A stretch of 64,000 nt of DNA from Vitreimonas sp. (lineage in GTDB: Bacteria > Patescibacteriota > Microgenomatia > UBA1400 > PJMF01), in assembly GCA_035627515.1 (NCBI GenBank), contig DASPLQ010000012.1, positions 1,199,705 to 1,263,704 on the forward strand, in the 5' to 3' direction. Below, in pieces: positions 1 to 13,370 of this stretch. The notes below the pieces were generated by a model. It was given only the letters and a program-made list of their open reading frames with translations, searched no databases and was not told where the DNA came from. Numbering within the stretch: the stretch's first letter is position 1; every line of letters starts with the position of its first letter. The translations under genes and the position numbers were made by a program.

Positions 1-783
1 TACTTTTTAGATCAAGGTAAAGATGTATTAGTCATCTATGATGACCTGAGTAAACACGCTCAAGCCTACCGGGAAATTTCCTTGCTGCTCCGCCGTCCTT
101 CAGGCCGCGAAGCCTACCCTGGTGACGTCTTTTACTTGCACTCACGCTTATTGGAACGCGCAGCTCGCTTAAACGAAAAATATGGTGGTGGTTCCATTAC
201 CGCGTTACCGATCATTGAAACTCAAGCTAATGACGTCTCGGCTTATATTCCTACCAACGTGATTTCTATCACTGATGGTCAAATTTACTTAGAAACTGAC
301 TTATTTAATGCCGGTATGAAGCCTGCTATCAACGTGGGTCTCTCAGTATCTCGGGTCGGTTCTGCTGCACAAACCAAAGCCATGAAGCAAGTTGCTGGTA
401 CCATGAAGCTCGACTTGGCTCAGTTCCGCGAACTCCAAGCTTTTGCCCAATTCAGTTCTGATTTAGACGACAAAACTAAAGCTCAACTCGACCGCGGTGT
501 CCGCGTCAATGCTGTCTTAAAACAAGGTTGGGATACGCCATTGAAAGTCGAAGAGCAAGTCGTGATTATCTTTGCTGCGGTTAATGGTTACTTAGATGGT
601 ATCAAAGTAGAGAAGATTCAAGACTGGGAAAAACAATACTTAGAATATATCCACACTGCTCACAGCGCTATTTTAGACTCAATTGCTCAAGAGAAGAAAA
701 TTACTGATCAAGCAATTGCTGATCTTAAAGAAGCCATTAGCAGTTTCAATAGTATTCATTCAGAATTTCAAGTTGAAGCATAA
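1..783 (+). CDS. atpA: F0F1 ATP synthase subunit alpha, C-terminal part (5' end cut by the window edge)
   Basis: Frame continues from position 1. The translation ...[42 protein letters not shown] is a conserved alpha-subunit motif. atpG, atpD and atpC follow. Confidence 0.9.
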
Positions 784-790
784 CTAACGC

Positions 791-1660
791 ATGGCAAACA
801 CTCGTCAAATCAAACGCCGCATTACAGCTTCACAAAACATCTCTAAGATTACTAAAGCAATGGAGATGGTGGCTGCCAGTAAGATGCGCCGGGCTCAAGA
901 ACAAGCTACGGCAACGCGTCCTTATTCGCGTGCTTTGCAAGCCTCGCTTTCCAAACTTGGTCAATTTTCAGATTCCAGTTTACATCCTTTGTTAGCTCAC
1001 CACGAAACGGGCGCGAACGCTATTTTGTTGCTCTCGACTGATAAGGGCTTGTGCGGTTCATTAAACCCCACCCTGTTCAAAGCAACACTTCAAGCTTATC
1101 GCCAATTTGAGCAACCAAAGCTGATTGCGGTTGGTAAAAAAGCCATTGCTTTTGCTCGGATTTTTGGCTTAGAGTTACACGCTCAGTTCAGCAACGTCCC
1201 TGAAAGGCTCACTAATGCTGACACCATTGCCATCAGTACTTTGATTATGGATGGCTTTTTAAGTCATGAATTCAAGACAGTACACATTGTGTACATGGAC
1301 TTTATTAATACCTTATCTCAAAAAGTTCGTCTGGTGCAATTATTACCATTGACCCAAGATGTTCAAGCAGATGAAGCGTTAGTCAGTCCTGAACTAAAAG
1401 CAGAGTATGCTTTCGAACCCTCGCCGCGAGAAATTTTATCCCAACTGTTGCCTTATTACTTAGAAAACTCTGTTTATCAAGCCTTTTTAGAAGGTAAAGC
1501 TAGTGAACACAGTGCCCGGATGGTCGCCATGAAAAATGCTAGTGAGAATGCTGCTGAATTGGTCAGTGAACTCAAACTCGAATTTAACAAATCTCGTCAA
1601 GCCAGTATTACTAATGAGTTACTCGACATTACCGTCGCAGCCATGACGTTGAAAAAGTAA
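791..1660 (+). CDS. atpG: F0F1 ATP synthase subunit gamma
   Basis: 289 aa, N-terminus MANTRQIKRRITASQNISKITKAMEMVAASKMRRAQ is gamma-like. Sits between atpA and atpD. Confidence 0.9.
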   Translation: MANTRQIKRRITASQNISKITKAMEMVAASKMRRAQEQATATRPYSRALQASLSKLGQFSDSSLHPLLAHHETGANAILLLSTDKGLCGSLNPTLFKATLQAYRQFEQPKLIAVGKKAIAFARIFGLELHAQFSNVPERLTNADTIAISTLIMDGFLSHEFKTVHIVYMDFINTLSQKVRLVQLLPLTQDVQADEALVSPELKAEYAFEPSPREILSQLLPYYLENSVYQAFLEGKASEHSARMVAMKNASENAAELVSELKLEFNKSRQASITNELLDITVAAMTLKK

Positions 1661-3064
<1,404 letters not shown>

Positions 3065-3147
3065 TAGTAACTAAGTAATTGGAGTAATTAAGTAATCTAT
3101 AGTTAAAGCCATTTACTCAGTTACTTAATTACTTAACGACTCAATCT

Positions 3148-3588
3148 ATGTCCGACAAACCTAAACTAACACTCTCTGTCGTTTCCCAAGATAAAAAACT
3201 CTTGGAAATGACCGTCGATTCCGTCAGTTTGCCCACCAGCGAGGGTGAAATTACGGTCTTGCCGGGGCATATTCCGTTGTTTACGCTGCTCACCACTGGG
3301 GAAGTGATTTATAAGCACGATAAAGATGAGTCAAGTTTAGTGGTCACTCGCGGCTTTGCAGATATTACCCCTGATAACCAATTATTGGTGATGGTAGACA
3401 CTGCTGTCCATGCTCGTGATTTGAGTGAAGAAAAAGCTCATGAGGCTGTGAAAAAAGCCCAAGAAACGTTAGCTCACATGACAGCTGCCCCTCCCAATGA
3501 AAAAGAGCTCCAAATGGCGGAAGCTTCGCTGAGACTGGCTCTGCTGCAATTAAGAGTCGCCCAGAGGACCAAGAGAACAACATTATAA
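3148..3588 (+). CDS. atpC: F0F1 ATP synthase subunit epsilon
   Basis: 146 aa. N-terminal beta-sandwich-like sequence (LTLSVVSQDKKLLEMTVDSVSLPTSEGEITVLPGHIP) with a C-terminal helical part. Operon position fits. Confidence 0.85.
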   Translation: MSDKPKLTLSVVSQDKKLLEMTVDSVSLPTSEGEITVLPGHIPLFTLLTTGEVIYKHDKDESSLVVTRGFADITPDNQLLVMVDTAVHARDLSEEKAHEAVKKAQETLAHMTAAPPNEKELQMAEASLRLALLQLRVAQRTKRTTL

Positions 3589-3652: not shown

Positions 3653-4138
3653 ATGAACGACACACTTAATCATAAAGCTATTCAGTTAACTGCCGAAGGG
3701 TTGGAAGAGCTCCAAAAAGAGCTTAAAGAACTCGTCGAGGTCAAACTACCCGAAGCCGTCGCTCGTGTAGCTAAGGCTCGTGAATATGGTGATTTGTCCG
3801 AAAATGCCGAGTACCACAGTGCCCGAGAAGACCAACAATTGTTGGAAGCTCGGATCTCTGAGATTGAAGATGTACTCAGTCGTGCGCAAGTGGTTAAACA
3901 AACCAAGAGTCACACTGCAGTAGGCATGGGCTCACAGGTCACAGTCTGTATGTCTGGTAAAAAAGCTAAGCAAATGGTCATTACTATTGTTGGTGAGTTT
4001 GAAGCCGATCCCACTGCCGGCAAAATTTCTAGCGTCTCTCCCTTAGGTAAAGCCTTAATGAGTAAGAAAAAAGGTGACAAAGTCAAAGTCAAAGCTCCCG
4101 CGGGGGAAGTTGAGTACGAAATTTTAGAAATAAAATAA
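3653..4138 (+). CDS. greA: transcription elongation factor GreA
   Basis: 161 aa. Coiled-coil N-terminus with the conserved acidic tip (AREYGDLSENAEYHSA). Confidence 0.9.
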   Translation: MNDTLNHKAIQLTAEGLEELQKELKELVEVKLPEAVARVAKAREYGDLSENAEYHSAREDQQLLEARISEIEDVLSRAQVVKQTKSHTAVGMGSQVTVCMSGKKAKQMVITIVGEFEADPTAGKISSVSPLGKALMSKKKGDKVKVKAPAGEVEYEILEIK

Positions 4139-4225: not shown

Positions 4226-6619
4226 ATGACAAATCAATCTTCTTCACCTGTTCTTCAAGCTCCTCATTGGGTCGATAATGTAGTGGAAAATATCTTAAGT
4301 TGGCAAAAAACTAACCAAGTTGCCAAGCTCCACGTCGACGACATGAAAACTCCTTCTGGCAGGGTGCATACTGGCGCACTGCGCGGAGTCGTCCTTCATG
4401 ATTTAGTTGCCAAAGCCTTAGCAAACAAAGCTCAAGGCGTGGTCAGTACCTATGTCTTTAATGATATGGACGTGATGGATGGTTTACCAACATATTTAAA
4501 TAAAGATATTTATGAACAGCACATGGGCAAACCGCTCTATAAAATTCCCGTGCCAGCTTTAGAAGAGTGTGGCATCGATTTGAGCACGGCTTCAGCTGAA
4601 GAAATTGCCGAGCTGCGATCGGCTAAAAATTTTGCTGAGTTATATGCTATGGATTTTGTGCATGCTTTTAGACGCTTGGGCTGCTCACAACGGCTGGTGT
4701 GGAGTCATGAGTTATATGAAGCGGGTGAAATGGATGAACAGATTCGGACAGCTTTAAACAGTGTGGAAATTGCCCGTAAGATTTATCAAGAAGTAGCTGA
4801 CTACAAATTACCTGAAAAATGGTATCCCTTTCAAGTCATTTGTGAGAACTGTGGCAAGATGGGCACCACTCTGGTCACCGACTGGGATGGCGAACAAGTA
4901 ACCTATGAATGCCAACCAGCTAAGGTCACCTGGGCAGTTGGTTGCGGACATACTAGTAAAACCTTACCTTTTGGGGGTAAGGGCAAGTTACTATGGAAAA
5001 TGGACTGGCCAGCTCACTGGACGAAACTTGGTATTACGATTGAGGGTGCGGGTAAAGATCATACTTCGGCAGGTGGCTCGCGTGATATGGCTAATGCTAT
5101 TGTCACACAAATCTTTGATCAGATAGTCCCCTTCGATATTCCTTACGAGTGGATTTTGATCCGTGGCGCTAAAATGAGCTCAAGTAAAGGCGTCGGCACA
5201 TCTGCCCGAGAGTTTGTGGAACTTTTTCCGCCCCAAATTGGCCGCTTCTTATTTGTGAATAAAGATTATAACCAGGTCATAGATTTTGATCCTAAAACCA
5301 TGGCTATTCCAGATCTTTACGATGCCTATGATGCTGGCGCGCGTATCTTCTGGAAACAAGAAGAAGGCGATCAGCGCTTAGCTCGATCTTTTGAGTTGTC
5401 ACAATTAGAGACACTCCCAGAACCACATTTCTTGCCGCGCTTTAGAGACGTAGCAGTGTGGATGCAACACCCTGAAATTGAGCTCGAAACAAAGTGTGCA
5501 GAAATAAAGGGTAGTCCTTTGAATCAATTAGAAAAAGCGGTCTTAAAAGAGCGCATTCAATACGCTAAAGTGTGGTTGAGCCGCTACGCTCCAGAAGAAT
5601 ACCAACTAACGCCATCTGCAGCAGTTCCTGCCGCGGCTAGTTCTCTGACTCAAGAGCAGAGACTTTATTTAAGTGAAGCGGAGAGATTAATTACTTCCCA
5701 AGCTTGGCAACCTCAAGATTTGCAGCAAGCTTTGTTTGAGTTGGCAAAAAGCTCCTTGGGAGCTCGGCCCGCTTTTGAAGCAATTTACTTAGCCTTTTTA
5801 GGCAAAAAAGCAGGACCTAGAGCAGCCTGGTTTTTATTAGCCATGGATCCCGAGTTTCGTAAACAGCGCATTGAACTCCTGAGTGGAAACCAACCTATTC
5901 AAACACAATTCAAGTTTCCGACTTTGAATAACTCTGCACACTTCAGCTTTCACCCCGACTTCGCTGCCAAATATCCCACTGCAAGTGTCGGCATTGCCAT
6001 TATTCGGGGCGTAACTATTACTAAGAGTTTACCGGAACTTGAACAACACAAGGCTGAATTTATTCAAGAAATCAGTGGCTTAACCACTGACGCAATTAAT
6101 CAATATCCTGAAATTCAGGCTTATCGTCGCATGTACAAGTCAATGGGCATTGATTGGCACTCCCGTCGTCCTAGTCCTGAAGCATTACTGAGACGCGTTA
6201 CCCAGGGAAAGGGACTCTACACGGTCAACACCTGTGTTGATGCCTACAATTTAGTGGTCATGAAACATCGAATTTCAGTTGGTGCGTTTGATTTGAGTCA
6301 AGTTCAGTTTCCCACACAATTAAGAATTGCAGAAGGTGGTGAACAAATCTTATTACTCGGTGACACAGAATCAACTACTCTTAAAACTGGTGAAGTAAGT
6401 TACTTCGACCAACAAGGACCTTATAACCTCGACTATAACTACCGTGATGCTCAGCGAACCATGGTGACAGAAAAAACAACTGATTTATTAATTAACATTG
6501 ATGGTATTGATGAAGCCGATCGGAGTAGAGTGGAAGAGAGTTTAGCTGAAACTATAGAAATTATTCAGCGCTACTGTGGTGGTGAAGTAGAAATGGCCGG
6601 CATCGTCACCGCAGACTAA
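4226..6619 (+). CDS. lysS: lysine--tRNA ligase, class I type, with about 240-aa C-terminal B3/4-like (PheT-type tRNA-binding/editing fold) extension
   Basis: 797 aa. Class-I LysRS signatures PSGRVHTGALRG and KMSSSKG. Residues from about 560 onward resemble the B3/4 domain (NTCVDAYNLVVMKHRISVGAFDLSQV). Confidence 0.8.
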   Translation: MTNQSSSPVLQAPHWVDNVVENILSWQKTNQVAKLHVDDMKTPSGRVHTGALRGVVLHDLVAKALANKAQGVVSTYVFNDMDVMDGLPTYLNKDIYEQHMGKPLYKIPVPALEECGIDLSTASAEEIAELRSAKNFAELYAMDFVHAFRRLGCSQRLVWSHELYEAGEMDEQIRTALNSVEIARKIYQEVADYKLPEKWYPFQVICENCGKMGTTLVTDWDGEQVTYECQPAKVTWAVGCGHTSKTLPFGGKGKLLWKMDWPAHWTKLGITIEGAGKDHTSAGGSRDMANAIVTQIFDQIVPFDIPYEWILIRGAKMSSSKGVGTSAREFVELFPPQIGRFLFVNKDYNQVIDFDPKTMAIPDLYDAYDAGARIFWKQEEGDQRLARSFELSQLETLPEPHFLPRFRDVAVWMQHPEIELETKCAEIKGSPLNQLEKAVLKERIQYAKVWLSRYAPEEYQLTPSAAVPAAASSLTQEQRLYLSEAERLITSQAWQPQDLQQALFELAKSSLGARPAFEAIYLAFLGKKAGPRAAWFLLAMDPEFRKQRIELLSGNQPIQTQFKFPTLNNSAHFSFHPDFAAKYPTASVGIAIIRGVTITKSLPELEQHKAEFIQEISGLTTDAINQYPEIQAYRRMYKSMGIDWHSRRPSPEALLRRVTQGKGLYTVNTCVDAYNLVVMKHRISVGAFDLSQVQFPTQLRIAEGGEQILLLGDTESTTLKTGEVSYFDQQGPYNLDYNYRDAQRTMVTEKTTDLLINIDGIDEADRSRVEESLAETIEIIQRYCGGEVEMAGIVTAD

Positions 6620-6628
6620 AGGATAACA

Positions 6629-7168
6629 ATGTCAACAATACCAACTCGTCAACAATCACAACAACTTTTAGATAAGTACATTAAAAATGATGCCCTCAAA
6701 CATCACTGCCAGATGGTGGCTCAAGCCATGGAAGCGTATGCGCAAGAGTTAGATCAAGATTCAGAACTCTGGTATCAAGCAGGCTTGCTTCATGATTTGG
6801 ATTGGGAAATGTATCCCGATGAGCATCCTAACCGAGCTATCAATGAGATTTTGATTGATTATCCTCAGGAACTCAAAGCTGCCATTGCCGCTCATGCCCC
6901 AGATAGAACCGGCAAACATCCTGAAACTTTGATTGAAAAATATCTTTTTGCTTGTGATGAAATTTCAGGTTTTATGCACGCGGTGTCACTGATGAGGCCC
7001 ACACGGTTTGAAGGCATGGAACCTAAATCGATCAAAAAGAAACTCAAAGACAAAGCTTTTGCAGCTAATGTCAGCCGTGATGATATAGAAGATGGCCTGA
7101 CTTTAATTGGCAAAAGTGCTGATGAACATTTTAGTTTTTTGATTAAGGTGTTTAGTTCACCAGCCTAA
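6629..7168 (+). CDS. HD-domain phosphohydrolase family protein
   Basis: 179 aa with H...HD motif (LLHDLDWE) and conserved downstream His/Asp residues. Confidence 0.6.
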   Translation: MSTIPTRQQSQQLLDKYIKNDALKHHCQMVAQAMEAYAQELDQDSELWYQAGLLHDLDWEMYPDEHPNRAINEILIDYPQELKAAIAAHAPDRTGKHPETLIEKYLFACDEISGFMHAVSLMRPTRFEGMEPKSIKKKLKDKAFAANVSRDDIEDGLTLIGKSADEHFSFLIKVFSSPA

Positions 7169-8080: not shown

Positions 8081-9349
8081 ATGCTTGATATTCAATACAT
8101 TCGCGACCATGCCGAGGAATTAAAGACCGCTATTAGTAATAAACAACTTAACCCTGAAGTGGTAGATCAGGTTTTGGCACATGATGAGCAACGCCGAGAG
8201 TTGATTGTCAAAGTAGAACACATTCGTCAGCAGATTAATGCTAATACTGAGTCCATCAAAACTTCCCCTACTCAACGGCCAACCCCTGAGCAAATTCAAT
8301 TAGGTAAGGAGCTGAAAGCTCAACTTCAAAATGTAGAACCAGAATTAAAAAGAGTAGAAGAAGCTCTTCGAGATTTGATGTCACAAGTCGCTAATCCTCC
8401 TGCTGGCGACGTACCTGTCGGCAAAGATGAGGATGACAATCAAGTCATCAAACAAGTCGGCACCTTACCAACTTTCGAGTTTGAACCCAAACCCCATCAT
8501 GAATTGATGGAAGCCTTGGACATGCTAGATACTAAACGAGCCACTCGGATTGGTGGCTTCCGAAGTTATTTCTTAAAAAATGATGGTTTACTGCTTGAAC
8601 AGGCGTTACTCCAATATGCTCTGCGATTTATGGTGGATCAGGGCTTTACGCCGATGGGTGTACCGATCATGGTCAATAAAGAAGCAATGTGGGGGACTGG
8701 GTACTTTCCTTGGGGTCAAGATGATCACTATAAAACCCAAGATGAGAGTATTTTGGCTGGCACTTCTGAAGTAGCTCTTACCGCCTATCATATGGGTGAA
8801 ACTTTGTCGGAAAAAGATCTGCCGGTTAAAATGGTGGGGATCTCACCATGCTTCCGCCGGGAGATTGGCTCATATGGTAAGGACACGCAGGGAATTATTC
8901 GTGTCCATCAGTTTAATAAGGTTGAGCAAGTAGTCTATACCATTGCCGATGAGGAAGAAACTCGTCGCTGGCACCAAACCATGGTGGGGTTTTCGGAAAA
9001 ACTCCTCACCGATTTGAAGCTCCCTTACCAAGTACTTTTGATGTGTACCGGTGATATGGGTGCCGGCCAGCGTAAAAAATATGATATCGAAACCTGGTTT
9101 CCATCACAACAAAAATACCGAGAAACGCACTCAGCCAGTTACTTCAATGACTTCCAAGCTCGTCGATTAAATATTCGTTACAAGGCTAAGGATGGGAGTA
9201 TGAAGTTTGTTTATACGTTAAATAACACGGTTGCTGCTACGCCGCGCTTGCTGGCTGCAATAATTGAAAATTATCAGCAAGCCGATGGCTCCATTCTAGT
9301 GCCGGAAGTTTTACAAGCGTATATGGGTAAGAGTGTAATTACTCGATAA
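8081..9349 (+). CDS. serS: serine--tRNA ligase
   Basis: 422 aa. Long N-terminal coiled coil. Class-II motifs (GISPCFRREIGSYGKDTQGIIRVHQFNKVE). Confidence 0.9.
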   Translation: MLDIQYIRDHAEELKTAISNKQLNPEVVDQVLAHDEQRRELIVKVEHIRQQINANTESIKTSPTQRPTPEQIQLGKELKAQLQNVEPELKRVEEALRDLMSQVANPPAGDVPVGKDEDDNQVIKQVGTLPTFEFEPKPHHELMEALDMLDTKRATRIGGFRSYFLKNDGLLLEQALLQYALRFMVDQGFTPMGVPIMVNKEAMWGTGYFPWGQDDHYKTQDESILAGTSEVALTAYHMGETLSEKDLPVKMVGISPCFRREIGSYGKDTQGIIRVHQFNKVEQVVYTIADEEETRRWHQTMVGFSEKLLTDLKLPYQVLLMCTGDMGAGQRKKYDIETWFPSQQKYRETHSASYFNDFQARRLNIRYKAKDGSMKFVYTLNNTVAATPRLLAAIIENYQQADGSILVPEVLQAYMGKSVITR

Positions 9350-10433: not shown

Positions 10434-13370
10434 ATGCTGAAATTTATTACCGATCTTTTCGACGAAAATAAGAAAGCCCTTAAGCGCTACCAGGCTATAG
10501 TGGACCAAATCAACGCCTTGGAGCCCAGTCTCAAAAAGCTAAGTGATACCAAGCTGGCAGCACAAACCAAAAAGTTTAAAACTATCATTAAAGACAGCCA
10601 AACTGCTGGGCGAGCTGATCAAGATATCTTAAACGAAATTTTACCTGAGGCCTTTGCTACCGTCCGTGAAGCTTCACGCCGTGTCTTAGGCATGCGGCAT
10701 TTTGATGTCCAACTTCTGGCAGGCATTGCTCTCCACCATGGTACTGTCACTGAACAAAAAACTGGTGAAGGCAAAACGCTTACCGTCACGGCACCACTCT
10801 ACTTGAATGCTCTTCTTGGCAAAGGGGTGCAGCTGATTACCGTCAATGATTATCTAGCCGAAGTTGGGGCAGGGTGGATGGGGCAACTCTACCATTTCCT
10901 CGGTCTTAGCACCTCAGTGATTGTGCACGATAAAGCTAAACTCTATAACCCAGATGTCGATAGCGAAGAGCGGGGAGATGAACGCTTAGAGCACTTTCAA
11001 GATATTTCCCGCCAAGCCGCTTACTCAGCTGATATTACGTACGGCACCAATAATGAGTTTGGTTTTGATTATCTCCGCGATAACATGGTGCAAGAACTCA
11101 ACCAAATGGTTCAGCGTACCGATACACCTCACTACTTTGCCATCGTGGATGAGGCTGACTCTATCTTGATTGACGAAGCCCGGACGCCATTAATTATTTC
11201 CGCTCCTGATACAGAACCTACCCAAAAGTATTATGAATATGCGCAAATGGTCAACGTCTTGGTCAAAAACATTGATTTTAAACTCGATGAAAAGGCCCGG
11301 TCCGTAACCTTAACAGATTTAGGTGTCAAACGTATCGAACAAAAACTCGGTGTCAGCAACTTATATGAGGAAAGCTTTGACACTATCCACCACGTGGAGA
11401 GTGCCCTCAAAGCCATGACTCTCTACCACCGAGATAAAGAGTACATCATCCGCGATAACCAAGTCATCATTGTCGATGAACACACCGGCCGTTTAATGCA
11501 TGGCCGTCGGTACTCAGATGGTTTACACCAGGCTATTGAGGCTAAAGAAGGTGTGCCTATTCAGCAAGAATCTCGTACATTAGCCACGATCTCACTTCAA
11601 AACTACTTCCGTCTCTACACCAAGCTTTCTGGTATGACAGGTACTGCCGTTACCGAAGCTGAAGAGTTTAAAAAGATTTATGACATGAACGTGTTGCCTA
11701 TTCCTACCAACGTGCCAGTTGTCCGGCATGATGGTACGGATCAGGTGTACAAAACTACAGCCGCTAAATATAGTGCTATTGTTCGCGAAGTTGAAGTTGT
11801 TCATGCTGAAGGCCGACCGATCTTAATTGGTACCCGATCGATTGATCACAATCAAATTATCTCCAACTTTTTAAAGCGAAAAAATATTCCTCACCAAGTC
11901 CTCAATGCTAAAAACAATGAACAAGAAGCCTTTATTATTGCCGATGCTGGTAAAAGGGGCTCGATCACTGTCGCCACTAATATCGCCGGCCGCGGTGTGG
12001 ACATTGTGTTGGGTGGTTCTAAACCTGAATTAAAAGATTACCGGAAACAGAAAAAAGCCAGCGATAAAGCCAGTGCCAAGACCGCCACCAAAAACACATT
12101 AGTAGAGGAACTGCGCTTACCACCGTCTGTAAATCCCGATAACTATAAACTCAAAGAGTATGCAGCTGCTCTGAAAAAATGGCAGGCAGCTCATGACGAA
12201 GTCGTCAGCCTCGGGGGTCTTCATATCATTGGTACTGAACGTCATGAATCGCGGCGGATTGATAATCAGCTCCGGGGTCGGGCTGGCCGCCAAGGTGATC
12301 CTGGCTCATCTCAGTTCTTTGTCTCACTCGAAGACGACATTATGCGTATCTTCGGCGGAGAGCAAATTGCCAAGGTCATGGATTTCCTGAAAATCGATGA
12401 AAATCAAGCTATCGAACATAGTATGGTCAGTAAGTCAATTGAGTCAGCCCAGGTGAAAGTGGAAGGGTTCTTCTTTGATCAGCGCAAACGATTGGTGGAG
12501 TTTGACGATGTGATGAACAAGCATCGTGAAATCATTTATAAACGTCGCCGACGCTTACTGGAAGAATCTGAAATGCTCAAAGAACAAATTTTGGAGTACT
12601 TACGCGACGAAATGGAAGCCATGGTGGCACTACGAGCTCCTCAAAACTTCACTGCCGATGAGTATGATGCCATCGTCAAAGAATTCATTAAAATTATCCC
12701 TTTCGATGATAATTCTCAAGCTGAGCTGCGAAAAACGCTTTCTCAATTGACTCAACCAGATGACATTGTTTCTAAATTAATGGAGATCACTACTACAGTG
12801 TATAAAACTCGAGAAGAGGTGGTTGGGACGTCAGCTATGCGCCAGTTAGAACGTTACGTGACCTTATCCACGATTGACGAAAAATGGATGGAACACCTGG
12901 ATGAGATGGATAATTTGCGTGATGGTATCTGGCTGCGTGGTGATAAAAACACGGTTTTAGCCGAGTATAAAAAGGAAGGATTCTCGATGTTTGAGCAACT
13001 CATCGCTCAAACAGAGTCAACCATTGCCAATCGCATTTTCAGAGTTCACATCCAGAATCAACCCCAAGTTCGAGTTGATTTATCTCAAGCGAAAGAAATT
13101 AAAGATGACGTCTTTGAACCACTTGAAAAAGAGGTCCAAGATGCAACTTTACCAGCTGCCGCGCCACGCCAAATCAAAGGCCAAGCTCAGGATTTAGCCG
13201 CGGCTCTAGCCTCAGCCAAAAGTACTTCTCGTCCATCCGTTTCTAGTTCCGATCCTTATGCCAAAGTTGGTCGTAATGATCTCTGTCCGTGTGGCAGTGG
13301 CTTAAAGTACAAAAAATGTGGTTTAATCAATTCTGCTGAGCATCAGGCCAAAACTGAAAATGCAGCATAA
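10434..13370 (+). CDS. secA: preprotein translocase ATPase SecA
   Basis: 978 aa. DEAD-like motor motifs. C-terminal zinc-binding tail CPCGSGLKYKKCG. Lys-rich insertion around aa 530-570. Confidence 0.95.
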   Translation: MLKFITDLFDENKKALKRYQAIVDQINALEPSLKKLSDTKLAAQTKKFKTIIKDSQTAGRADQDILNEILPEAFATVREASRRVLGMRHFDVQLLAGIALHHGTVTEQKTGEGKTLTVTAPLYLNALLGKGVQLITVNDYLAEVGAGWMGQLYHFLGLSTSVIVHDKAKLYNPDVDSEERGDERLEHFQDISRQAAYSADITYGTNNEFGFDYLRDNMVQELNQMVQRTDTPHYFAIVDEADSILIDEARTPLIISAPDTEPTQKYYEYAQMVNVLVKNIDFKLDEKARSVTLTDLGVKRIEQKLGVSNLYEESFDTIHHVESALKAMTLYHRDKEYIIRDNQVIIVDEHTGRLMHGRRYSDGLHQAIEAKEGVPIQQESRTLATISLQNYFRLYTKLSGMTGTAVTEAEEFKKIYDMNVLPIPTNVPVVRHDGTDQVYKTTAAKYSAIVREVEVVHAEGRPILIGTRSIDHNQIISNFLKRKNIPHQVLNAKNNEQEAFIIADAGKRGSITVATNIAGRGVDIVLGGSKPELKDYRKQKKASDKASAKTATKNTLVEELRLPPSVNPDNYKLKEYAAALKKWQAAHDEVVSLGGLHIIGTERHESRRIDNQLRGRAGRQGDPGSSQFFVSLEDDIMRIFGGEQIAKVMDFLKIDENQAIEHSMVSKSIESAQVKVEGFFFDQRKRLVEFDDVMNKHREIIYKRRRRLLEESEMLKEQILEYLRDEMEAMVALRAPQNFTADEYDAIVKEFIKIIPFDDNSQAELRKTLSQLTQPDDIVSKLMEITTTVYKTREEVVGTSAMRQLERYVTLSTIDEKWMEHLDEMDNLRDGIWLRGDKNTVLAEYKKEGFSMFEQLIAQTESTIANRIFRVHIQNQPQVRVDLSQAKEIKDDVFEPLEKEVQDATLPAAAPRQIKGQAQDLAAALASAKSTSRPSVSSSDPYAKVGRNDLCPCGSGLKYKKCGLINSAEHQAKTENAA

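Follow-up and report, generated by a model that had tools for sequence, protein, structure and literature searches.

Among the synthetases, only lysyl-tRNA synthetase (LysRS) occurs in two structural classes, class I and class II, whose folds are unrelated; the class I enzymes described to our knowledge end at approximately 500-550 aa and carry no editing domain. We analyzed a 64,000-nt stretch of DNA (contig DASPLQ010000012.1, positions 1,199,705 to 1,263,704 of the forward strand; hereafter, the window) that encodes a class I LysRS continuing, past this usual end, into a C-terminal module with the fold of CtdA. CtdA is a free-standing deacylase of approximately 230 aa that acts on canavanyl-tRNA-Arg through a pocket formed by N105, G116, E118, C166, Q173, and I189; the CtdA mutants N105A and G116H/W are inactive, N105 is the only residue in common with the editing site of phenylalanyl-tRNA synthetase (PheRS), and cognate Arg-tRNA-Arg is weakly hydrolyzed (PMC12449066). 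For LysRS itself, the editing listed to date consists of active-site pre-transfer editing (class II: homocysteine, homoserine, ornithine cyclization) and ProXp-ST factors, and includes no post-transfer domain (PMC7373986). In AlaRS/AlaX, ProRS INS/ProXp-YbaK, and ThrRS N2/ThrRS-ed, a single deacylase fold is found in cis, as a domain of the synthetase, and in trans, as a separate factor, and changes in the pocket set the specificity (PMC12449066, PMC7373986). The module described here (the Lys-type module) differs from these pairs in its fold and in serving both structural classes of one synthetase. While the fold and the family are known, as is the general use of editing domains in cis and in trans, the recruitment of an editing-type deacylase by a synthetase without a known one, and the presence of the same module on both LysRS classes, appear to be new. 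The fusion gene and its parts are as follows.

4226..6619, + strand: fusion gene, lysS followed by a CtdA-like module; 797 aa plus stop, a single open reading frame (ORF) with an ATG start and without an internal stop
4265..5875, + strand: class I LysRS body, aa 14-550, with a Rossmann catalytic domain and anticodon-binding helical domains (TIGR00467, PF01921)
4352..4387, + strand: HIGH-equivalent motif PSGRVHTGALRG, aa 43-54 (HTGALRG = aa 48-54), from sequence reading
5171..5191, + strand: KMSKS-equivalent motif KMSSSKG, aa 316-322, from sequence reading
5876..5941, + strand: linker from synthetase to module, aa 551-572 (AlphaFold model)
5903..6616, + strand: CtdA-like module of the B3/4 fold, aa 560-797, corresponding to an entire free-standing deacylase of approximately 230 aa (PF03483, AlphaFold model)

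The extra C-terminal residues had been likened to a B3/4 domain in a preliminary description of this DNA, and the profile search bears this out, as PF03483 (B3_4) matched aa 632-785 with 83.3 bits against a cutoff of 29.3 (E 2e-23) over profile positions 1-174 of 174. The same description had pointed to the B3/4 fold of PheT and of trans-editing proteins; the fold assignment stands, while a merely PheT-type domain does not. The AlphaFold model of the module, with a predicted local distance difference test (pLDDT) value of 94.7, superposed on CtdA (9mkl/9f7e) over 233 columns with template modeling scores of 0.81 (TMq) and 0.85 (TMt), as compared to a TMq of approximately 0.58 for PheRS beta, and this structural match includes the CtdA-specific helical insert. 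Two CtdA crystal structures were also the best PDB sequence matches of the module, ahead of PheRS beta. The appendage is therefore not limited to a PheT-like B3/4 domain; an entire CtdA-type protein is attached to LysRS through a linker of approximately 20 residues.

The module and CtdA share the whole-protein fold, the helical insert, a length of approximately 230 aa, and two pocket residues (N105, which corresponds to N675, and G116, which corresponds to G686), and both have a patchy, accessory distribution. However, the module is only approximately 20% identical to CtdA and is fused to LysRS, whereas CtdA is free-standing and belongs to the arginine system; moreover, Lys-type modules are found in Patescibacteria, a group missing from the phyla listed for CtdA. 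The B3/4 editing domain of PheRS beta, which hydrolyzes Tyr- and m-Tyr-tRNA-Phe, is also a PF03483 member and provides a precedent for post-transfer editing in cis. It shares with the module the catalytic-water Asn (N254 in Escherichia coli) and an AFD motif (MHAFD in PheT, VGAFD in the module); in a weak sequence alignment to PheT, N254 and F267 correspond to the identical residues N675 and F688, while H265 is replaced by G686. Of the E. coli PheRS editing-site residues, which also include R244, Y255, A312, G318, and E334, the alignment was strong enough to place these three. Inserts and topology differ between the two proteins (PMC12449066). In addition, the PheRS domain lies within B1-B8 of a heterotetramer, whereas the module is a terminal add-on to another synthetase.

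The first 550 residues form a genuine class I LysRS. The NCBIfam equivalog TIGR00467 (lysS_arch) matched aa 14-550 with 306.2 bits against a cutoff of 147.55, covering profile positions 2-512 of 515, and PF01921 (tRNA-synt_1f) matched aa 14-394 with 268.7 bits against 27 (E 9e-80). The full-length AlphaFold model matched the class I LysRS of P. horikoshii (1IRX) over 555 columns (E 1.6e-34, TMt 0.73). Both signature motifs were found where the preliminary description had read class I hallmarks in the N-terminal 540 or so residues, and H48, G50, and K316-G322 are invariant in 44 aligned homologs; four Cys residues in this part (206, 209, 229, and 240) are conserved as well. The N-terminal 550 aa are thus a full member of the archaeal/spirochaete type of class I LysRS (TIGR00467; 1IRX), including the helical anticodon-binding domain, and the difference from that type is that the protein runs approximately 245 residues beyond the usual end. 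No second LysRS gene, second B3/4 gene, or tRNA-Lys gene was found within the 64-kb window. The synthetase part is most probably the housekeeping LysRS, because its motifs are invariant, it is encoded at an orthologous locus, and the window contains no other LysRS.

The reading of the 797-aa frame as one gene rather than two is supported by the occurrence of the identical protein on four contigs, one of which is an independent Logan assembly of SRR7003767, and by an architecture common to approximately 80 protein clusters (750-812 aa, 48-68% identity). A scan for the module, made with one genome per species, found it encoded in 172 species-representative genomes; of the resulting loci, 80 were fetched, and 72 contain a continuous ORF encoding class I LysRS plus the module, while the remaining eight encode class II LysRS plus the module. 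In public databases, these fusion proteins are named merely lysine--tRNA ligase. The full-length AlphaFold model (pLDDT 93; predicted TM score, pTM, 0.68) contains two bodies, one matching 1IRX and the other matching CtdA (TMt 0.83). The only internal stretch with a pLDDT below 50 is aa 556-559 (nt 5891-5902), which agrees with the junction initially placed near 5850-5900. Such an ORF could also arise if two genes had been joined by a frameshift, an overlooked stop codon, or a chimera in the assembly, and at two loci (L089 and L094) lysS and the module are indeed separate adjacent or overlapping calls. This explanation is hardly credible given the same ORF in four contigs from independent assemblies, the 72 class I and eight class II unbroken fusions in species-representative genomes, and a linker-region DNA sequence without a homopolymer run or slippery sequence; furthermore, the split cases resemble frameshifted fusions and not the reverse. 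At L089, a genuine split gene (lysS-I, then the module) was rejected, as the reading frame of the module stays open in the upstream direction, through the conserved motif KPEIFSID, and lacks a start codon; this locus was treated as a frameshifted fusion. L094, where the lysS-II and module calls overlap by 14 nt, was treated in the same way by analogy with L089.

Pairwise and profile alignments to CtdA (9mkl/9f7e), which agreed with each other, were used to map the pocket of the module.

6248..6283, + strand: pocket positions kept from CtdA, N675 (N105; nt 6248-6250) and G686 (G116; nt 6281-6283), from alignments to 9mkl/9f7e
6287..6496, + strand: remodeled pocket, F688 (E118), N734 (C166), D741 (Q173), and N757 (I189), including the motif YNLDYNYRD, from alignment mapping

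The canavanine pocket, defined by E118, C166, Q173 (or E), and I189 together with the CRRWNWR motif, is not present in the window module, where these four positions are changed to E118F, C166N, Q173D, and I189N, substitutions that are fixed in the Lys-type clade. Because these canavanine specificity residues are lacking, we file the module as a Pfam B3_4 member with a CtdA-like fold and not as a canavanyl-tRNA deacylase. Each of the six residues equivalent to the CtdA pocket is at least 98% conserved in 95 Lys-type modules; this conservation, which covers the kept Asn and Gly as well as the four remodeled residues, indicates that selection probably acts on a working Lys-type pocket. Close or distant, LysRS-linked modules have an aromatic residue at position 118 and nearly always Asp at position 173 (motif NYRD), as compared to Glu at position 118 and Gln or Glu at position 173 in the arginine-linked group. 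Modules carried on the N-terminus of arginyl-tRNA synthetase (ArgRS), i.e., P0303, P0304, P0314, P0328, and P0371, keep N-G-E-C-E-V/I and CRRWNWRE. As these ArgRS-fused modules retain the canavanine pocket, matching the role of CtdA on tRNA-Arg, the fusion partner appears to track the tRNA system.

Based on these comparisons, the module is probably a tethered post-transfer editing deacylase for mischarged tRNA-Lys. The class I LysRS part would charge tRNA-Lys, and the CtdA-family deacylase, tethered at the LysRS C-terminus by a flexible linker of approximately 20 residues, would take the 3' end of a tRNA-Lys bearing a wrong amino acid and hydrolyze the ester bond while sparing Lys-tRNA-Lys; editing could take place before the tRNA leaves the enzyme that charged it or after its release. 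Candidate targets are lysine look-alikes that would be mis-transferred by both LysRS classes, e.g., thialysine, ornithine, or another basic antimetabolite originating from the environment or a host. Canavanine is not the expected target, because the module pocket differs from the canavanine pocket of CtdA. We infer the hydrolytic activity, tRNA-Lys as the substrate, and the identity of the amino acid from comparison. The patchy, repeatedly lost distribution, which is similar to that of CtdA, fits a module that may protect against a conditional toxin rather than serve a core need, and the free-standing copies of the Lys-type module parallel other pairs of editing domains and trans-editing factors.

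The preliminary description had offered either added tRNA affinity or a proofreading (deacylase) activity as the role of the appendage. Between these two, affinity now has less in its favor, and proofreading appears better supported because the pocket, including the Asn and Gly, is conserved, free copies exist, one fusion protein (P0254) contains a separate tRNA_bind (Trbp111-type) domain alongside the module, and the ArgRS-fused modules provide a control. Trbp111/tRNA_bind (PF01588) is likewise a terminal synthetase add-on that also occurs free-standing; however, it has an unrelated OB fold, and no PF01588 match was found in the window protein. A non-catalytic appendage that has lost hydrolysis and raises the affinity of LysRS for tRNA-Lys, similar to Trbp111 or EMAPII, would be consistent with the replacement of four of the six CtdA pocket residues and with the position of the module at the anticodon-binding end of class I LysRS; in addition, the non-catalytic B3/4-fold protein LRRC47 is among the fold matches. 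Class I LysRS requires tRNA for amino acid activation, so added affinity could help (PMC7373986). We nevertheless consider this unlikely, since the replaced residues, like the catalysis-linked Asn and Gly, show a conservation of at least 98%, which would be unexpected in a degenerate pocket, and since one module is shared by two LysRS classes, which reach the acceptor stem of the tRNA from opposite sides. The free-standing copies and the repeated loss of the module without a change in the synthetase also argue against a tRNA anchor, and the dedicated tRNA_bind domain beside the module in P0254 makes it unlikely that the module is a mere anchor.

Several observations weigh against tethered editing. 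As four of the six pocket residues of CtdA differ in the module, CtdA activity is not directly transferable to it, and LRRC47, found among the fold matches of the module, belongs to those B3/4-fold proteins that are thought to be non-catalytic. In 1IRX, the C-terminus of class I LysRS lies at the anticodon-binding end, far from the catalytic site, and the pTM of the full-length model leaves the relative placement of the two domains undefined. A comparison of 81 fused and 38 unfused proteins identified no synthetase residue that co-varies with the module (maximum mutual information 0.37 bit, with none in the catalytic core); there is therefore no sign that module-bearing enzymes are more error-prone. 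Finally, genomic context gives only a hint of a lysine-analogue target, from a single case: at L090, a PF03956 Lys_export (LysO-type) gene (4729-5310, + strand) occurs downstream of a free-standing module, at a distance of approximately 300 nt. In E. coli, LysO is a lysine exporter that confers resistance to thialysine (PMC8498466).

The named sources of the fusion (Roizman-, Gottesman-, Woese-, Levy-, Davies-, Dojka-, and Pacebacteria, and CPR3) belong to the Microgenomates part of Patescibacteria. At the eight class II loci, the C-terminal module is 53-68% identical and the complete ORFs comprise 724-772 aa; one of these proteins (L004) matched TIGR00499 (lysS_bact) with 440.5 bits against 427.6 and contains OB anticodon, class II core, and B3_4 domains. 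Among more divergent C-terminal fusions (29-41% module identity), all 10 tested also have LysRS as the partner (seven class I and three class II), as do all other C-terminal fusions examined. Truly free-standing Lys-type modules were found mid-contig at L002 (7228-7890, - strand), L090 (2973-3635, - strand), and L092 (3250-3897, - strand). The preliminary description had suggested surveying relatives for the same fusion or a separate gene; the survey thus yielded class I fusions, class II fusions, and free copies, with repeated gain or loss.

An active deacylase whose target is not mischarged tRNA-Lys, acting either in regulatory trimming of Lys-tRNA-Lys or as a general trans-editing factor that is co-expressed through the fusion, would be in line with the weak hydrolysis of cognate Arg-tRNA-Arg by CtdA (PMC12449066). 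Free copies located away from lysS would allow action in trans, and the synthetase shows no sign of the module having been lost. This alternative is improbable, as the partner in all long C-terminal fusions examined, even where module identity falls to 29%, is LysRS of one class or the other, and the ArgRS-fused sister group keeps a pocket for an arginine analogue; partner specificity is therefore systematic and not an accident of co-expression. Futile hydrolysis of Lys-tRNA-Lys would also be costly in an organism with a small genome. The recruitment of an editing-type deacylase by LysRS has exceptionally good support from comparison, since one module occurs with either LysRS class.

In a neighbor-joining tree of the modules, built without support values, modules from class II fusions and free modules branch among those from class I fusions, and the nearest neighbor of the window module is a class II fusion (P0242, 67% identity). 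This pattern fits a module that follows the lineage and not the synthetase class, with the lysS part possibly having been replaced in front of a retained module; such repeated swaps between class I and class II LysRS would represent a clear case of non-orthologous displacement inside a multidomain gene. The closest unfused orthologs are 552-553 aa long, are 64-69% identical in the synthetase part, and lie in the same greA-lysS-HD-serS-secA order as in the window; in these, the module is absent and there is a 4-nt overlap between lysS and the HD gene. When the synthetase parts of the 81 fused and 38 unfused proteins are placed on a tree, parsimony requires approximately 13 state changes. Because unfused orthologs occur at the same locus and approximately 13 gains or losses are counted, the module is, on this comparative evidence, best described as a discrete and often lost accessory that is dispensable for charging.

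CtdA-type modules were also observed in other arrangements. One 764-aa protein (P0288) carries a CtdA-1-like module (N-G-D-C-E-V, LCKAWNWRE) on the N-terminus of a class II LysRS (TIGR00499, 555 bits) and is a third, independent kind of LysRS fusion. N-terminal ArgRS fusions with CtdA-type modules (868-1124 aa) comprise P0303, P0304, P0314, P0328, P0371, and P0287, the last of which has two B3_4 copies; the modules show the complete canavanine pocket signature, and these proteins imply that some ArgRS enzymes may edit canavanyl-tRNA-Arg in cis. No mention of a cis fusion of ArgRS with a CtdA-type module was found in the CtdA papers examined. The descriptions of CtdA (CtdA-1, CtdA-2) in these papers likewise make no mention of fusions, LysRS, lysyl, or Patescibacteria, and full-text searches of open-access papers and preprints identified no report of a LysRS-B3/4 fusion, although such absence is not proof.

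More broadly, the Lys-type module might represent an unrecognized deacylase specificity class that proofreads tRNA-Lys and was recruited independently by both LysRS classes; the many uncharacterized free B3/4 proteins with the aromatic-118/Asp-173 'NYRD' pocket (CtdA-2-like) would then be lysine-system editing factors directed against a natural lysine antimetabolite. We regard this wider reading as tentative. In at least 172 species, one module is linked to LysRS of either class; for these small-genome, scavenging bacteria, mischarged tRNA-Lys may thus be a real selective problem, and the fusions provide an entry point to the offending amino acid. They also naturally label an uncharacterized branch of the CtdA family, with a canavanine pocket in the ArgRS-fused modules and a different, fixed pocket in the LysRS-fused modules, so that the role of B3/4 proteins other than CtdA-1 becomes directly testable. 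If the proposed function is correct, LysRS would be added to the synthetases with a dedicated domain for post-transfer editing, and the lysine-system factors would guard against the antimetabolite much as CtdA does against canavanine.

The fusion gene is located among housekeeping genes and is followed by a gene encoding a putative hydrolase.

82-3588, + strand: ATP synthase operon (alpha C-terminal part, gamma, beta, and epsilon)
3653-4138, + strand: greA, after the ATP synthase operon and upstream of lysS
6629..7168, + strand: HD/HDIG hydrolase gene, separated from the upstream lysS by 9 nt and preceded by an AGGA ribosome-binding site of its own (PF01966, E 4.9e-6; TIGR00277, 31 bits against 27.6)
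8081-9349, + strand: serS, downstream housekeeping gene
10434-13370, + strand: secA, downstream housekeeping gene

A joint role of the HD hydrolase and the module in a nucleotide-related or signaling function linked to LysRS, e.g., turnover of an adenylated by-product, could be proposed from the 9-nt gap between the two genes, from four proteins in which an HD domain is fused in frame behind the module (L015, L019, P0246, and P0254), and from the presence of the HD gene downstream of seven of the eight class II fusions. Of the 80 fetched loci, 18 have an HD homolog immediately downstream, two (L015 and L019) have one fused behind the module, and five have one within approximately 1 kb; at the other 55 loci, no homolog was found in the approximately 4 kb fetched downstream, a number that becomes 53 after excluding two loci with too little downstream sequence. 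The HD gene adjoins unfused lysS equally, and its product is very widespread and 68-78% conserved in Patescibacteria, where it carries only generic names and no specific annotation; in addition, the B3/4 fold has no known nucleotide-hydrolase function. A joint role is therefore very improbable, and the HD protein as part of the module function was rejected on account of its equal presence beside unfused lysS and the lack of a homolog in the downstream sequence fetched at 53 of the 80 loci; the link of the HD gene is to lysS or to local gene order and not to the module. A PDB sequence search with the HD protein gave no match, and its similarity to the YqeK-like part of NadD-YqeK (E 1.4e-4) was too weak to be used.

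Additional observations were made on the taxonomy and surroundings of the related loci. The source metagenome-assembled genome (MAG), whose contig here is 1.41 Mb long, is labeled 'Vitreimonas sp.', an alphaproteobacterium, whereas the closest relatives of its LysRS and HD protein and its gene order point to Patescibacteria (Pace-, Woese-, and Roizmanbacteria); many related third-party annotation (TPA) MAGs are labeled 'uncultured Gammaproteobacteria', and these alphaproteobacterial and gammaproteobacterial labels look wrong. Directly upstream of the free-standing modules at L002, L090, and L092 is a conserved, divergently transcribed gene encoding a protein of approximately 215-220 aa; these proteins are 56-80% identical to each other, and their sole Pfam signal is a sub-threshold C-terminal ACT match (E 1e-4 to 2e-3), so that the gene product might be an amino-acid-sensing partner. 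At L089 (2088-4902, + strand), genes for an ornithine/diaminopimelate/arginine decarboxylase (PF00278/PF02784, possibly lysA) and an aminotransferase directly precede lysS-I and may constitute a lysine-metabolism neighborhood. In two unfused relatives (L086, 641-2324; L087, 473-2188), a gene for a 354-aa class II core-only protein (PF00152), located a few kb upstream of lysS-I, adjoins the gene for elongation factor P (EF-P) in an EpmA/GenX-type arrangement for EF-P lysylation, so that a class II LysRS paralog accompanies a class I LysRS in these genomes.

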